IMG/VR virus record: IMGVR_UViG_3300000301_000076
Length of the DNA: 22,417 nucleotides
Origin: a virus
Lineage: Duplodnaviria; Heunggongvirae; Uroviricota; Caudoviricetes
Reading direction: 5' to 3' (one strand)
Under the pieces are notes generated by a model, which worked only from the letters and a program-made list of their open reading frames with translations, was not told where the DNA came from and did no database searches. How positions within the stretch are numbered: position 1 is the first letter of the stretch; each line of letters starts with the position of its first letter. Both the position numbers and the translations under genes were made by a program. This document shows, in pieces, positions 13,200 through 18,628 of this stretch.

Positions 13200-13481
13200 A
13201 TGAAAGATTTAACGCTCAAATTTGCAGACAGGGCCGACTTTTCGGCCTTTATGGAGAGTATTGGCTATTATGATGACGAGTCGATGCAGGGTGATATTCT
13301 TATTGACGTGATAGGTAACGTGTACAAAGAAACCGGAGAACTGACTGAAGATGGCGAACCGGTATGTGTTAAGGAGGACGGATATTTTGTAAACGTGCGC
13401 ATCATTAATGATGCAAAAAAATCGTCAATATTCGATAAATACGCGATTGTTGTTGAGCATCAACTTCGTGGCTGGATGTGA
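13200..13481 (+). CDS. Hypothetical protein, 93 aa (possible fibre assembly factor by position only)
   Basis: ATG 13200 preceded by GGGGGAG; acidic soluble protein; lies between the fibre gene and the chaperone-domain gene. No family recognised. Confidence 0.45.
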   Translation: MKDLTLKFADRADFSAFMESIGYYDDESMQGDILIDVIGNVYKETGELTEDGEPVCVKEDGYFVNVRIINDAKKSSIFDKYAIVVEHQLRGWM

Positions 13482-13490
13482 GGGAGACAA

Positions 13491-14364
13491 ATGGCTACAT
13501 CGACAGTAATTCCAGGAGACATCACCACGTTAAAGGGAGATGTCAGTAAAGCCAAGGAAGATATTTCCTCAATTAACGGAAAAGTATCAACGCTTCAGAC
13601 TGATATGACCAGTGCAAAGCAGGATATCAGCACCAGATACACAAAAACTGAAGTTGATAATANNNNNNNNNNNNNNNNNNNNNNNNNNNNNNNNNNNNNN
13701 NNNNNNNNNNNNNNNNNNNNNNNNNNNNNNNNNNNNNNNNNNNNNNNNNNNNNNNNNNNAAAGTGGAAGTGAACGATCTGGAAAGTGGTCGTTATGGTGG
13801 AGATTTTTACCCGCTGACTGGTCGTGAAGCGTTTTATTTGTGGGGATTGGGCACGACTACAGCGGCGGCAAACCTTTATCTTAATCCTGACCCCGCAATT
13901 TCGTCTGTACTGCGGTCCACATCGTCTATCCGCTATAAACATTCAGTAGAGACGATAGATTCGGAGCACGCCGATCTCATTTTCAAGATGCGCCCTGTGT
14001 GGTACAGGTCGCAATGCGAAAATGACAGGCGCGATTGGGGATTCTATGGATTGATTGCCGAGGAAGTAGGAGAAATTGCCCCTCAGTTTGTTCACTGGCG
14101 AGCAGCTAACGAGAATNNNNNNNNNNNNNNNNNNNNNNNNNNNNNNNNNNNNNNNNNNNNNNNNNNNNNNNNNNNNNNNNNNNNNNNNNNNNNNNNNNNN
14201 NNNNNNNNNNNNNNNTTTCCAGCAATGGCCTTGTTGCCGAAGGTGTAATGTACGAACGTCTGGTTGTTCCACTGATTCACCATATCCAGAAACTGACTGA
14301 AAGAGTTGATGAACTTGAGTCAGAATTAAAGTTGTTATCAACTTCCCGAAGCGATATCGGATAA
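13491..14364 (+). CDS. Short fibre-like protein with N-terminal coiled coil and C-terminal intramolecular-chaperone (peptidase S74-like) domain; N-runs 13663-13759 and 14117-14215
   Basis: ATG 13491 with GAGGGAG upstream. The N-terminus has heptad-like repeats (TLKGDVSKAKEDISSINGKVSTLQTDMTSAKQDIS). The C-terminal part has the hallmarks I recall from endosialidase and T5 pb1 chaperone domains: a Ser-rich site (RSTSSIRYK), WGFYGLIAEEVGEIAPQFV, and a terminal Y-x-x-L-V-x-x-L-I-x-x-I-Q-K-L-x-x-R-V-x-E-L-E helix. Stop at 14362-14364. Confidence 0.6.
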
Positions 14365-14375
14365 AGGAGGAGTAA

Positions 14376-14739
14376 TGGATATAACACCTTTCCTTCATGC
14401 ACTTTGTGCTGTGGCTGCGCAGGTACTGGTTGGGNNNNNNNNNNNNNNNNNNNNNNNNNNNNNNNNNNNNNNNNNNNNNNNNNNNNNNNNNNNNNNNNNN
14501 NNNNNNNNNNNNNNNNNNNNNNNGGAAACTGGGCTTACGGGGCGATAGCCGGTTGTACGTTCTTCATTGCTCGTGAACATACCCAGGCAGAATATCGCTG
14601 GATTGAAATGTTCGGGCATGGCAAGCGAATGAATATGCCGTGGTGGGGCGGTTTTGATCCGCGCGCGTGGGATGTAGCAAGTCTGATGGATTTTGCGATT
14701 CCACTTTTAGCGTGCACATTATTATATATTTTTATTTAA
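14376..14739 (+). CDS. Small hydrophobic membrane protein, about 120 aa (N-run 14435-14523)
   Basis: ATG 14376 preceded by AGGAGG. Hydrophobic N-terminus (MDITPFLHALCAVAAQVLVG) and hydrophobic C-terminus (FAIPLLACTLLYIFI). Function unknown. Confidence 0.4.
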
Positions 14740-14831
14740 TATAAGATTAACTGAGATATAGCTTACGCAAAGAAGGTAATAAATATAAAGAGAGATGTTC
14801 TGAGGTAATTTATTGTTGGTGTTTAAGGTTA

Positions 14832-14861
14832 TTTACAGATAGGTAAGTGCATACCTATATA
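14832..14861 (+). promoter_or_regulatory. Candidate sigma70-type promoter upstream of the lysis cassette (TTTACA, 18-nt spacer, TATATA)
   Basis: Hexamers read directly from the sequence in the AT-rich 180-nt intergenic region about 60 nt upstream of ATG 14921; not validated. Confidence 0.3.
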
Positions 14862-14920
14862 AAAAAGATAAAATGTGATATAAATCCGCCATCCCGATTT
14901 GACTTTTCATGGAGGAAAAT

Positions 14921-15324
14921 ATGTCGAACGAGATGGCGGGCGTAACAACAGAGCAAGTTGAGCGCATTGCCGCGATCGTTGCTCGGGAGGTTGTCGGCAA
15001 ATTAGGTAAAGAGCTACGTGAAGAAATTGGCCAGGAGGTCAACGATCAGCTGAAAACCTACTTTGGTGATATGACCCCGGCGCAACATAGTATTCAACAC
15101 TCCAACCTGGACAAANNNNNNNNNNNNNNNNNNNNNNNNNNNNNNNNNNNNNNNNNNNNNNNNNNNNNNNNNNNNNNNNNNNNNNNNNNNNNNNNNNNNN
15201 NNNNNNNNNNGATTCCATCTCCAGTGGGTTCTTTGGCGGCATTGTTTCTAAAATAACGTCGTTCATTATTACCGCACTGCTTTTGGGGTTAGCCGCGTAT
15301 GGCGTGAAAAATGGACTGCAATAA
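14921..15324 (+). CDS. Holin-like membrane protein with a single C-terminal transmembrane segment (N-run 15116-15210)
   Basis: ATG 14921 with GGAGG 5 nt upstream. Hydrophilic charged N-terminus; the C-terminus after the gap reads FFGGIVSKITSFIITALLLGLAAYGVKNGLQ. Lies immediately upstream of the endolysin-like gene. The holin assignment is by position and topology only. Confidence 0.4.
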
Positions 15325-15337
15325 CAGGAGATCAAGG

Positions 15338-16111
15338 ATGAAGACTCCGAGAGGCATTCGTAACAATAACCCCGGTAATCTTGATAAAGGATCGCCGTGG
15401 CAAGGTCTGGTTGCTNNNNNNNNNNNNNNNNNNNNNNNNNNNNNNNNNNNNNNNNNNNNNNNNNNNNNNNNNNNNNNNNNNNNNNNNNNNNNNNNNNNNN
15501 NNNNNNNNNNNNNNNNNNNNNNGTTTAAAGACCCTGTTTGGGGGATTCGTGCGCTGGCGGTGACTCTAATTACCTACCACGACAAACGTCGCGCAAAAGA
15601 CGGCTCAAGTATCGATACCATTCGTGAAGTTATTGAACGCTGGGCACCGCCGAACGAAAATAACACTGACGCCTATATTAATGAGGTGTCCAAAGCAGTT
15701 GGTGTAACCGCAGACATGATTATCGATCTGCATGATTACGACATCCTTCGACCTTTAGTTGAGGCAATCATTCGCCACGAGAATGGCCGAGGCCCGCTAA
15801 AAACGCTGAACACCTGGTATGCGGCAGAAGTTATTGAGGAAGGTCTGCGTCGAGCTGGCGTCGTTAAGCCGGTGAAAACGGTGAAGGCTGTTCCTGTAAC
15901 GAAAGAAACCGCAGGCGCAACTGTTACAGCAGGTATTGGTCTGGCGCAGCTTGCCGATGTTATGCCGCAGATTTCCGCTGCTATGGATAAAGCACAAGGT
16001 CATATCTCTAGCGGGGATACAGTACGCATCATCTTCGGTATTGCCACTATTGTTGTGGCAGGATTCATTGCCTGGTCGCAGGTAAGAAAACACCAGAAAG
16101 GGATGGTCTAA
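15338..16111 (+). CDS. Endolysin-like cell-wall hydrolase with a C-terminal hydrophobic anchor (N-run 15416-15522)
   Basis: ATG 15338 with AGGAG upstream. N-terminal motif GIRNNNPGNL, which I associate with phage peptidoglycan-hydrolase-type proteins but cannot assign to a family without a search. C-terminus VRIIFGIATIVVAGFIAWSQV is a predicted transmembrane helix. Sits between the holin-like and spanin genes. Confidence 0.5.
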   Translation: MKTPRGIRNNNPGNLDKGSPWQGLVAXXXXXXXXXXXXXXXXXXXXXXXXXXXXXXXXXXXXFKDPVWGIRALAVTLITYHDKRRAKDGSSIDTIREVIERWAPPNENNTDAYINEVSKAVGVTADMIIDLHDYDILRPLVEAIIRHENGRGPLKTLNTWYAAEVIEEGLRRAGVVKPVKTVKAVPVTKETAGATVTAGIGLAQLADVMPQISAAMDKAQGHISSGDTVRIIFGIATIVVAGFIAWSQVRKHQKGMV

Positions 16112-16112
16112 T

Positions 16113-16577
16113 ATGCTAGGCATCCTGATGACAAAGCTAAAAGTTGCTTTGATTATGCTGGCTGCCGTTCTTTTCGTTCTTGTCGGCGCTTACACGATGG
16201 GCGGAAATGCGGCGCGACGAGCAATGGAAGAGAAGGCAAAACAGGAAGACAGAAAACGACTTCAAAACACAGTGAAAGNNNNNNNNNNNNNNNNNNNNNN
16301 NNNNNNNNNNNNNNNNNNNNNNNNNNNNNNNNNNNNNNNNNNNNNNNNNNNNNNNNNNNNNNNNNNNNNNNNNNNNNNNNNNNNNNNNNAGATGCTTCTG
16401 CCGTTCATCGTGAGTTGTATGATAAGTGGGTGCGTCATTAAACCACAAACAGCCAGCGTGTTGTTCTGCGATGGGGCTGAGCCTATCTATATCAGCAATA
16501 ATGATGTAATGACTGAAGAAACCGAACGCCAAATCCTTTTTCACAATACGATGGGAGAGAGGGTTTGTGGTTGGTGA
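16113..16577 (+). CDS. Spanin locus: i-spanin (N-terminal TMD plus charged coiled coil) and o-spanin-like lipoprotein segment (N-run 16279-16389 hides the junction)
   Basis: MLGILMTKLKVALIMLAAVLFVLVGAYT is a signal-anchor followed by a charged helical region (Rz-like). After the gap, MLLPFIVSCMISGC has a lipobox-like signal and a short Cys-containing periplasmic tail (Rz1-like). Whether the arrangement is embedded, overlapped or separated cannot be seen. Confidence 0.55.
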   Translation: MLGILMTKLKVALIMLAAVLFVLVGAYTMGGNAARRAMEEKAKQEDRKRLQNTVKXXXXXXXXXXXXXXXXXXXXXXXXXXXXXXXXXXXXXXMLLPFIVSCMISGCVIKPQTASVLFCDGAEPIYISNNDVMTEETERQILFHNTMGERVCGW

Positions 16578-16584
16578 TGTCGAA

Positions 16585-16606
16585 GTTCCCCTCAAATGAG
16601 GGGAAC
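16585..16606. terminator. Perfect palindrome gttcccctca-aa-tgaggggaac between convergent operons; possible bidirectional terminator
   Basis: 10-bp arms read directly; lies 8 nt after the spanin stop and near the toxin 3' end on the - strand. No clear U-tract on either side, so terminator function is uncertain. Confidence 0.35.
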
Positions 16607-16714
16607 ACATTATTCTNNNNNNNNNNNNNNNNNNNNNNNNNNNNNNNNNNNNNNNNNNNNNNNNNNNNNNNNNNNNNNNNNNNNNNNNNNNNNNNNNNNN
16701 NNNNNNNNNNNNNN

Positions 16715-17290
16715 AGATTTTGTAGGATAGAACAAAGAACGCTCGTTGTTACCAACCAGCTGGATAAAGCCTAAACTTTTATAAAACGCCTTGGCTTTGT
16801 CATTTAACGCCTCAACGAAAAGTCCATGAATGCCTACAGCAAGAGATGCATTGTACACAACGCGCATTGCATGTGTTACAAGNNNNNNNNNNNNNNNNNN
16901 NNNNNNNNNNNNNNNNNNNNNNNNNNNNNNNNNNNNNNNNNNNNNNNNNNNNNNNNNNNNNATTGAGCCAAATCCTTGACCTTGAAGGGACTTGTCCAAA
17001 GCCAGCCTACCCAAAGTAACACTTGGAACATTCCGATAAGGAACCTTCTTTTGTTTGCTTCTTGAAGGTAAGGACTCCTTTTCAAAACAACTACCTGACA
17101 AAGTGTAATATCCTAACACTTTTGGCCTTTCTTCTTGAGTGCAAAGCACATAAGCACGAAGAATTTTTCCCTCATGCTGCCTTTTTAAGTGGTTGGCTAA
17201 AAAGGCGTTTAGTGACTCTTCGCCGCAATCAAAACCGTTTAGATCATAATCTTTCTCTCCAGAGAAAATCTCTATCGTTGTATTGCTCAC
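16715..17290 (-). CDS. GNAT-family acetyltransferase toxin, AtaT/TacT-like (3' end lies inside N-run 16617-16714; internal N-run 16883-16961)
   Basis: The translation is close to my recollection of E. coli AtaT (YDLxxFDCGEExLNxFL, KILRAYVLC, VLGYYTLSGSCFE, QKKVPYxNVPSVTLGRLAxDxSLQGQGFG, HAMxVVxxASLAVGIHGLFVEALNxKA, FYKSLGFIxLVG, FYPTKS). GTG start at 17290, 5 nt after the antitoxin stop. Confidence 0.85.
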
Positions 17291-17297
17291 GAGTAAA

Positions 17298-17567
17298 CTA
17301 CTCCATGCTTTTCAGACGATCAGCAGCTCGTTTCAGCTTGTCGTTCGGTGCCGGAGGATTGCTTATAGCGTCCATAACCAGATTCCAGGATTCTTCATTC
17401 AGAACTAGTCTACGGTGTTGCTCTATAACTTTCACGGCACGTTCAGATGCACTGCTAACCATAAACTGAGTAATGCTCTGGTTAGACATTGCGGCAGCTT
17501 CCTCGATGATGCTTTTATCGTCATCGGTTAATCTCAAATCGATGCGCTGCTTTTTTAGTGCTGACAT
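17298..17567 (-). CDS. DUF1778 ribbon-helix-helix antitoxin, AtaR/TacA-like
   Basis: MSALKKQRIDLRLTDDDKSIIEEAAAMSNQSITQFMVSSASERAVKVIEQHRRLVLNEESWNLVMDAISNPPAPNDKLKRAADRLKSME matches recalled AtaR almost along its whole length. Start taken at the internal ATG (17567) because AGGAGG precedes it; the ORF-track start at 17606 is rejected. Confidence 0.85.
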   Translation of the reverse strand: MSALKKQRIDLRLTDDDKSIIEEAAAMSNQSITQFMVSSASERAVKVIEQHRRLVLNEESWNLVMDAISNPPAPNDKLKRAADRLKSME

Positions 17568-17577
17568 GTATTCCTCC

Positions 17578-17605
17578 TGATGGCCGTGATGTAGGAAGGC
17601 CATCA
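17578..17605 (-). promoter_or_regulatory. Inverted repeat TGATGGCC-N12-GGCCATCA immediately upstream of the antitoxin RBS; candidate operator of the TA operon
   Basis: 8-bp perfect arms read directly from the sequence. TA operons of this family are autoregulated by the antitoxin-toxin complex binding palindromes at the promoter (established knowledge); the assignment here is inference. Confidence 0.35.
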
Positions 17606-17885
17606 ATCTCCTCTGTTCAAACTGAGTTTTCGACTCAAAAATTACTTTAAAAGGCTATAGCCCATTACGTGTGCATTATCAAATTGTGTACGGCATATCA
17701 CCGTACTTGTAATATAGAGGTCATTGTTACTTTTTTCAACAGACAAATACAAGCTATGATTGCCAATTGTTAACCACAACCTACCATTTAACCTTTACAC
17801 CGCAGCCGTAGGCATTTAGGCTATATCACATATAAGAAAACAAGTTGTTTCAGACGATAATTATATACGCAAAGGGAACTCTCCA

Positions 17886-18628
17886 ATGACCAAGATCTTT
17901 GTGGTTGGCGGCACAAAGGGCGGGCCTGGCAAATCCACCGTTGCCCAGCAAATTGCCGTTTGCCTGAAAGTCAAAAAGAAGAAGAAGGTTTATATTACCG
18001 ATATAGATATNNNNNNNNNNNNNNNNNNNNNNNNNNNNNNNNNNNNNNNNNNNNNNNNNNNNNNNNNNNNNNNNNNNNNNNNNNNNNNNNNNNNNNNNNN
18101 NNNNNNTGTGAAGACCGTCGACAGAACGAAGACCTTGAGCTGATTCCTTTTGCATACGTTCAGGATGACATCATTAAGCACCTAAAATCGCTTCAGGGTA
18201 GAGCTGAGTTTGTAGTGGTAGATGCTGGTGGCTTCGACTCCGAAATTCAGCGACAAGCGATGCTGATGGCTGACGTTATCATTATCCCGCTGCGTCCTAA
18301 GCGTCGTGATTTGAAATCTTTACGTGACATCGATCCTATTATCGACAATGTTCGCAATGTAAACGATAAAGTGAAGGTCCGCGCGGTCATGAACCAGTGC
18401 CCGGCTTTGCCATCACAAGTGTCTCGCATTCTGGCGGCTAAAGAGATTGTTGAGACGTTTGGAATCGAGTCTGCGCCAGTCAATCTATATAACCGCAACG
18501 TCTATGATGATGCGGAAGAGTCTGGTCGTTCTATCTTTGAAATGACCGGTAGCGAGCGCGACAAAAAGGCGGAAGCCGAGTTTGAAGAATTTGTAGATTA
18601 TCTGTTGAGTCTGGAGGAAGAAGAATAA
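17886..18628 (+). CDS. parA: ParA-family partition ATPase, small type Ib-like (N-run 18011-18106)
   Basis: Deviant Walker A at the N-terminus (VGGTKGGPGKST), VVVDAGG motif, about 245 aa. ATG 17886; stop overlaps the next start (TAATG at 18626-18630). Confidence 0.85.

Follow-up and report, generated by a model that had tools for sequence, protein, structure and literature searches.

A transmembrane domain (TMD) at the C-terminus of a phage endolysin was described in silico for phage Siskin, where it was taken to mark a potential new endolysin class (2019, PMC6498227). The only member of this family with in vivo lysis data is M4Lys of Salmonella phage BSPM4, whose catalytic domain degrades peptidoglycan and whose full-length form alone lyses Escherichia coli, with no effect of the Sec inhibitor azide; truncation of the transmembrane (TM) segment abolishes lysis, and the TM segment by itself is bacteriostatic (Bai et al., 2020, PMC7143992). 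In the same study ORF_37, which occupies the slot in front of the endolysin gene in chi-like phages, was non-toxic and caused a slight delay of lysis (PMC7143992). For Enc34 ORF39, the catalytic domain's crystal structure (7Q47) has a fold distantly related to GH73 and GH23, with Glu131 proposed as the catalytic residue and Trp79 and Tyr95 also conserved, and the mechanism was stated to be unknown (2022, PMC8943055). Full-length homologues alone lyse or poison E. coli (PMC7143992, PMC8943055), no known pathway exports an N-terminal domain of 150-200 residues via a C-terminal TM, and it is acknowledged as an unsolved question by which route an endolysin with a C-terminal anchor and no N-terminal signal gets to the peptidoglycan (PMC8943055). 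Here we examine positions 14921-16577 of IMGVR_UViG_3300000301_000076, a tailed-phage sequence of 22,417 nucleotides (nt) that is referred to at its full length as the window. Judged by its nearest matches, the window is an SSU5-like phage-plasmid and this segment its lysis module, in which a small membrane protein (gene 1, hereafter X) precedes a C-terminally anchored endolysin (gene 2) and the spanins Rz and Rz1. Sequence comparison places the cassette as a variant of the chi/Enc34 type that has a non-homologous partner of mirror topology in front of the endolysin.

Matches to the region 14200-16800 come from Escherichia phage Cyrano (= plasmid pLF82), from Salmonella phage SSU5 and from 725 plasmid records, mostly non-mobilizable Enterobacterales plasmids, the best of them at 97-98% identity, and the lysis module shares 97-100% nucleotide identity with Cyrano/pLF82 and SSU5-like plasmids. 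SSU5-like elements are inducible and genetically tractable in E. coli, and they often carry resistance genes. The first-pass annotation of this stretch, made from the letters alone, had called 14921-16577 a lysis cassette; that assignment is borne out by the matches of genes 2-4 to phrog_873, phrog_1026 and phrog_1275 and by the labels of the relatives, which in Cyrano read Holin, Endolysin, Rz spanin and Rz1 spanin. Pfam and NCBIfam searches with five proteins, i.e. those of the four cassette genes and of an upstream membrane protein discussed below, gave nothing above threshold.

The window contains 25 runs of N, three of which interrupt cassette genes (15116-15210, 15416-15522 and 16279-16389). 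Their true sizes emerged when the sequence was aligned piece by piece with Cyrano and plasmid ESBL242, in which each run of 79-111 N comes to no more than 1-34 real bases: the cassette runs of 95, 107-108 and 111 N are only 15, 27 and 34 bases long in the nearest relatives, and throughout the window runs of 58-210 N correspond to 1-34 real bases in relatives that are 97-100% identical (e.g. 15116-15210 and 16883-16961). The runs are mis-sized gaps, and neither length nor frame is kept across them. This is why a mechanical list of open reading frames (ORFs) gives gene 1 a false end at 15256, makes the endolysin 257 amino acids (aa) long and fuses Rz to Rz1. These ORFs are misleading and were replaced by those of the relatives L001 and L002, the proteins being rebuilt from unmasked pieces of the window together with gap-free relatives (97-100% identical); TM segments were called by Kyte-Doolittle hydropathy (KD). 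Might the odd topologies described below be nothing but wrong frames read across the N-runs, which do break frame and length and thereby create false ORF ends and fusions? The gap-free relatives refute this explanation, for their genes specify the same proteins, C-terminal TMs included, and since distant homologues keep those TMs as well, we give it next to no credit.

The endolysin begins with a hydrophilic N-terminus, MKTPRGIRNNNPGN, which carries the motif GIRNNNPGNL. Residues 3-151, the domain with this motif for which the first-pass annotation had suggested a profile search, match the catalytic domain of ORF39 of Hafnia phage Enc34 (PDB 7Q47; E=6.8e-54), and the protein matches phrog_873 'endolysin' (E=3e-88). 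E121, W75 and Y86 align with Enc34 Glu131, Trp79 and Tyr95, do not vary among 30 homologues and are all read from unmasked parts of the window, the N-run in this gene (15416-15522) replacing 27 real bases elsewhere. The PHA02564-type catalytic domain takes up residues ~1-150; behind it come a conserved linker, which contains a weakly hydrophobic helix, the C-terminal TM (201-219, KD 2.0) and a basic tail, SQVRKHQKGMV, with three positive charges. This TM is retained in 30 homologues of 55-87% identity; family-wide, the last helix has a KD of 2.16 and the tail a net charge of +2.1, and the best 19-mer of helix 1 reaches a KD of 1.23, i.e. it is weakly hydrophobic. The basic tail argues for a cytoplasmic C-terminus. 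Conservation of the C-terminal 80 residues goes beyond hydrophobicity, for specific polar positions are kept (PVTKET, G174, Q177, P183, S198 and Q221). An AlphaFold model of the full protein is confident in the catalytic domain and scores <50 at residues 156-199 (linker and helix 1). At the other end of the protein no N-terminal signal and no signal-arrest-release (SAR) segment occurs in the family, the N-terminal KD being at most 0.12, so that gene 2 has none of the weakly hydrophobic N-terminal domain that marks a SAR endolysin. The first-pass annotation was thus right that this endolysin ends in a TM and differs in this from lambda R and SAR types, but the arrangement had already been published for Siskin, M4Lys and Enc34. 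By homology it is a new member of the published, mechanistically unsolved Enc34/M4Lys type, and its architecture is not new.

The family is large. At E<=1e-10 there are 1,930 homologues, and the best 120 of these, at 56-100% identity, are mostly full-length (~226-240 aa), lie in many cases on phage-plasmids or contigs of ~100-110 kb and come from hosts that include Escherichia, Klebsiella, Salmonella, Cronobacter, Xenorhabdus, Photorhabdus and Providencia. The architecture therefore reaches well beyond Chivirus and its relatives. One member found next to X in another contig (L091 4368-5063) reads GICINNPGLL where GIRNNNPGN is otherwise invariant and IVMYNG instead of IRHENG at the position of the catalytic Glu, with its C-terminal membrane domain kept; this enzyme may be inactive or may have diverged.

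Enc34 ORF39 shares with the window's endolysin the PHA02564 catalytic family, the Glu/Trp/Tyr set, the lack of an N-terminal signal, the C-terminal membrane domain and the overlapped Rz/Rz1 pair that follows. It differs in that identity is ~55-60% and in its background, Enc34 being a chi-related siphovirus and the element described here a phage-plasmid of ~100-110 kb; moreover, the first gene of the Enc34 cassette, ORF38, has an N-terminal TM and is unrelated to X. M4Lys and chi gp38 are full-length homologues with a PVTKET-like linker, TM and basic tail (gp38 is 55% identical over 99% of the length, the C-terminal domain included), whereas the protein encoded upstream of them, ORF_37/chi gp37, has an N-terminal TM and no detectable homology to X. 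The order of the Siskin/chi cassette is likewise the same, i.e. single-TM protein, TMD endolysin, Rz and Rz1, and Rz of the window resembles chi gp39; yet the 'class IV holin' proposed there has its TM at the N-terminus with N-out/C-in orientation, in contrast to the C-terminal TM of X. More distant is the LysAP/HolAP pair of Acidovorax phage AP1, in which a C-terminal TM is needed for localisation and lysis and the endolysin works with a small membrane protein, but in which the catalytic domain is of the unrelated GH24 type, no spanins were found and HolAP is, as far as testable, unrelated to X (PMC8879335). Finally, the SAR endolysins with pinholins (phage 21, P1 Lyz) resemble this cassette in having a membrane-tethered endolysin and in that lysis is possible without a large-hole holin, although the SAR anchor is N-terminal and Sec-dependent and that of the SSU5-type endolysin C-terminal.

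What, then, is X? In the window 14921-15115 translates to MSNEMAGV...HSNLDK and 15211-15324 to DSISSGFFGGIVSKITSFIITALLLGLAAYGVKNGLQ followed by the stop codon; with Cyrano's 15 bases in place of the N-run 15116-15210 the two pieces join into a protein of 107 aa, which consists of a charged stretch of ~80 residues, a single hydrophobic segment at 81-99 (KD 2.0) and eight further residues. The first-pass description of gene 1 as largely hydrophilic with one C-terminal TM agrees with this result and with the retention of the segment in 36 homologues of 24-69% identity, and the topology prediction that it had suggested, carried out here by KD, yields a single strong C-terminal TM in both gene 1 and gene 2; kept in both sets of homologues, these segments are no accident of sequence. 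X matches phrog_5093 'unknown function' (E=7e-69), has no Pfam or NCBIfam family and matched no described holin family; when 36 relatives were run against Pfam, only single sub-threshold matches at chance level appeared, none of them to a holin family. A word-indexed protein search with X retrieved SSU5-like relatives only (>=59% identity), and among 1.84 billion cluster representatives a profile search identified 62 members, all of ~100-140 aa and one layout. The family is rare. Its plan is a variable, charged, helical N-terminus, a conserved motif ([YH]FG[DE]M..x.H.x.QH.R...LL...D..S.NFWG, in which G49, H56 and H60 never vary and D71 hardly does) and one C-terminal TM with 1-14 residues after it. 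A dual-start motif considered for X (M1/M5) is not kept across the family and was dropped. The AlphaFold model of X consists of one long helix at 10-48 and another at 53-104, with a GDMT turn between them (mean predicted local distance difference test score 84), and Foldseek found 0 matches to it in the PDB.

Because the charged domain in front of the TM is long (67-115 residues in the family, 30% charged) and no signal sequence precedes the TM, we infer N-in/C-out, i.e. a tail-anchored protein, as the sole plausible topology of X. X and chi gp37 would thus be topological mirror images of one another, each with one TM and a cytoplasmic helical domain of ~70-80 residues, and the G/H/H (+D) motif belongs to X; comparison of X with chi gp37/ORF_37 (phrog_7686) gave no homology (hhalign probability 0.5%). 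For chi gp37 itself (L003 1650-1988) the labels are in conflict: it is an 'Rz-like spanin' in RefSeq and in PHROG (phrog_7686), the equivalent gene is regarded as a putative class IV holin by the Siskin authors, and no toxicity was seen in the BSPM4 study. Our literature search on 'tail-anchored' holins and on SSU5 lysis genes found nothing relevant.

Does X travel with a single kind of endolysin? Metagenome and IMG/VR contigs gave 15 distinct contexts of X. X is the first gene of the lysis cassette in 15 of 15; where upstream sequence is available it lies in most cases directly 3' of tail genes, and its stop codon often overlaps the start of the following gene (by 1-4 nt). At least five endolysin types stand next to it: Enc34-type endolysins with their own TMD (the window, L019, L100 and L091), Peptidase_M15_3 or M15-like peptidases (L086, L088, L177 and L178), Amidase_2 (L094), GH108 (L092) and SLT-like enzymes with an N-terminal hydrophobic segment (L093, L099 and L175). 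The four Enc34-type cassettes, in which the endolysin has its own TM, contain no other small holin-like membrane protein (0/4), and in Cyrano no ORF with a convincing TM is hidden inside the cassette. Where the endolysin has no C-terminal TM domain of its own and the contig is long enough, an extra small membrane protein is clear in eight of nine cassettes, the ninth (L176) being ambiguous. The extra proteins range from 58 to 120 aa and have 1-4 TMs; a recurrent 2-TM family and one Pfam Holin_2-3 protein are among them. The split of 4 versus 9 gives p ~0.001 by Fisher's exact test but, the lineages being related, is suggestive only.

The recurrent 2-TM family (L086 5905-6123, L088 5791-6066 and L094 4800-5057) is encoded directly after soluble endolysins. 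It has the motif RP[FY][VL]T...N...G...D[YF][IV]...GP.N..I...WF.ER, belongs to no Pfam family and gives only weak matches to phrog_6637; it is a candidate class II holin. In two of the Enc34-type contigs (L019 5064-6377 and L100 4613-5875) unrelated genes, including signal-peptide lipoproteins, lie between the endolysin and Rz genes, which indicates that the cassette tolerates moron-like genes.

Read together, these patterns suggest to us that X is a constant part of the lysis cassette that works with a second membrane element, which would be either a separate small protein or the C-terminal domain of the endolysin. An alternative is that X has nothing to do with lysis and is kept in place by synteny, for example as a membrane-anchored tail-fibre or late-region accessory or an exclusion protein. 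It is true that all contexts of X come seemingly from one broad phage lineage, that X also always follows tail genes and that neither Pfam, NCBIfam, PHROG nor the protein search supplied a functional annotation. However, X stays joined to the first lysis gene, often through overlapping codons, while the upstream tail genes and the endolysin type change, and an AT-rich spacer of ~180 nt separates it from the tail-fibre module as against 13 nt from the endolysin gene, all of which makes such a bystander role improbable.

For the cassette as a whole we propose the following scheme, to which we would give about even chances. A four-gene late operon would burst the host cell. Its endolysin would be an Enc34-type wall hydrolase that resembles beta-N-acetylglucosaminidases; the C-terminal domain would hold it at the inner membrane, the basic C-terminus being cytoplasmic, and would also serve as the membrane-lesion element that in related cassettes is a separate small holin-like protein. 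X would be tail-anchored, with its charged helical domain of ~80 residues and the G/H/H (+D) motif in the cytoplasm and 5-10 residues outside, and would act in the membrane as a partner in lysis timing. Rz and Rz1, judged by homology, would then fuse the inner and outer membranes. An X that works with a second membrane element fits the M4Lys data, in which the TM is necessary and alone bacteriostatic, as well as the mild delay of lysis seen with ORF_37, and makes a regulator (antiholin-like or co-holin) somewhat more likely than a sole hole-former.

Several observations weigh against this scheme. The low AlphaFold scores at residues 156-199 of the endolysin leave two arrangements, a hairpin that keeps the catalytic domain inside and a single span that places it outside. 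Its C-terminal domain has no homology to Pfam or PHROG holin families, and none to the 2-TM proteins of other X cassettes (hhalign probability 0.1%), so that a fusion of the endolysin with that family, which we considered as well, is unsupported; the equivalence of the domain with holin-like proteins is a functional inference only. The extra membrane proteins of the other cassettes are themselves uncharacterised. The contigs with X all seem to come from a single broad SSU5-like lineage, with PhoH and DnaB downstream, and the conserved position of X may therefore partly reflect shared ancestry; tblastn with distant members of the family found X in isolate phages of the SSU5-like group only, and locus searches with narrow X alignments returned almost exclusively SSU5-like contigs. 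Finally, the experimental data come from homologues and not from X or the SSU5-type endolysin, and as X has no homology to ORF_37, the result for the latter transfers only by analogy of position and topology.

Could X instead be the holin itself, probably a pinholin-type depolariser of a new, tail-anchored topology, which would trigger at a set time, so that collapse of the membrane potential releases or activates a tethered, inactive endolysin in the manner of SAR endolysins and pinholins? X is a small single-TM protein in the canonical holin slot, encoded beside the endolysin in the window as in the 15 contexts and closely linked to the lysis gene that follows; it is the sole non-spanin membrane protein of the SSU5 cassette besides the endolysin, and SSU5, Cyrano and pJN2-26 annotate it as holin. 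The Enc34 authors proposed just such a pinholin-like model for their own, unrelated first gene (PMC8943055), and in phage AP1 an endolysin with a C-terminal TMD cooperates with a growth-arresting holin (PMC8879335). On the other hand, X matches no holin family and, in place of the charged C-terminal tail of holins, has 1-14 residues with a mean net charge of +0.9 after the TM; its long N-terminal domain with invariant His is unlike known holins. Furthermore, X cassettes whose endolysin has no membrane domain of its own carry another holin-like protein, in one case Holin_2-3, and M4Lys lyses cells without any holin (PMC7143992). A holin of this kind is possible but doubtful.

If the proposed scheme of a membrane-lesion domain on the endolysin and X as timing partner is carried further, X may be the founder of a new tail-anchored class of lysis-timing proteins and the Enc34-type C-terminal domain a built-in holin, which would make the SSU5 cassette a holin-endolysin fusion governed by X. 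This extension is unlikely as matters stand and is put forward as a tentative idea; in it the invariant His-x3-His pair of X (H56, H60) would lie next to the membrane. Were it true, X could offer a way into the question of how an endolysin anchored at its C-terminus gets to the cell wall. The present account describes, in silico, genes that already bear the annotations holin and endolysin, and what it adds, the different conserved partner X together with the contrast between endolysins that bring their own TMD and those accompanied by a separate membrane protein, is a hypothesis open to genetics.

The features of the cassette are collected in the table. A Shine-Dalgarno sequence, GGAGGA, stands ahead of X at 14912-14917, and one base separates the endolysin gene from that of Rz.

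Features of the lysis cassette and its 3' flank in window coordinates; coordinates span the N-runs, protein lengths are those of gap-free relatives.
Feature	Coordinates	Strand	Remarks
Gene 1 (X)	14921..15324	+	107 aa in relatives; predicted tail-anchored membrane protein in holin position
Gene 2, Enc34/M4Lys-type endolysin	15338..16111	+	230 aa in relatives
Rz-type i-spanin	16113..16441	+	83 aa in relatives; phrog_1026
Rz1-type o-spanin, visible part	16392..16577	+	phrog_1275; true start within N-run
Terminator-like hairpin GTTCCCCTCAAATGAGGGGAAC	16585..16606	+	consensus match only

The last two genes have the hallmarks of an overlapped two-component spanin, namely an inner-membrane component (i-spanin) with a TM and a lipobox-bearing outer-membrane component (o-spanin) that starts inside Rz and ends beyond it, the lipobox being taken from Cyrano. 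Rz has its N-terminal TM at 11-29 and matches phrog_1026 'Rz-like spanin' (E=7e-25); the N-run 16279-16389 replaces 34 real bases of its gene. Rz1 matches phrog_1275 (E=4e-23) and clearly resembles chi gp40 by eye. In Cyrano the Rz1 ORF (L001 4288-4503 = OV696614 27942-28157) overlaps the end of Rz (L001 4116-4367) in another frame and encodes 71 aa that start with the lipoprotein signal MRRAVKYVRKMLLPFIVSCMISG and continue with the Cys of the lipobox. A spanin database lists the SSU5 pair as overlapped, with the o-spanin in the Chi family (PMC6139136). Cyrano's own annotation gives Rz1 as 39 aa from a GTG; the lipobox ORF begins 96 nt upstream of this, from which it follows that the annotated start is too late. 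RefSeq plasmid records such as that of ESBL242 leave Rz1 unannotated.

Upstream of X there is a further small membrane ORF, which the first-pass annotation placed at 14376-14739 and offered as the possible real holin; the end of this interval stands, whereas the start lies at 14375. The ORF is interrupted by an N-run, and in ESBL242 it encodes a protein of 94 aa that has two to three hydrophobic segments and matches phrog_1443. In its small size and several TMs the product resembles a class I holin, and the gene lies ~180 nt upstream of X. Nevertheless, a holin function of this protein is highly improbable, and the earlier suggestion fails on two counts. Firstly, the gene does not occur in Cyrano or SSU5, whose matches begin at query position 638-641, and it is also missing from most SSU5-like plasmids, all of which keep the X-endolysin-Rz-Rz1 block. 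Secondly, it is the last gene of a four-gene tail-fibre block (with genes of 282, 705 and 285-288 nt) and travels with it: the block, 13200-14739, has 96-98% nucleotide identity in lambda-like phages (IdasGreatGrand, PhiR49_1 and lambda hybrids). Its family, phrog_1443, is of unknown function. Lambda-derived phages with this block presumably carry lambda's own S/R/Rz. By these matches the 94-aa protein is part of an exchanged tail-fibre module and not of the lysis cassette, and the identity of the block points to a recent exchange of a host-range module between the phage-plasmid and lambdoid phages.

On the 3' side, the hairpin lies between the end of the cassette and a convergent GNAT toxin gene. 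It is the sole terminator-like site in 14300-16900, a count no higher than expected by chance (shuffle mean 1.9). In Cyrano the cassette is followed by a convergent KacT-type toxin/antitoxin pair and then ParA. The window has the same neighbours, a GNAT (KacT-type) toxin and a DUF1778 antitoxin on the minus strand at 16610-17606, convergent with the cassette, and ParA at 17960-18628; plasmid-maintenance genes thus lie directly beside the lysis module.

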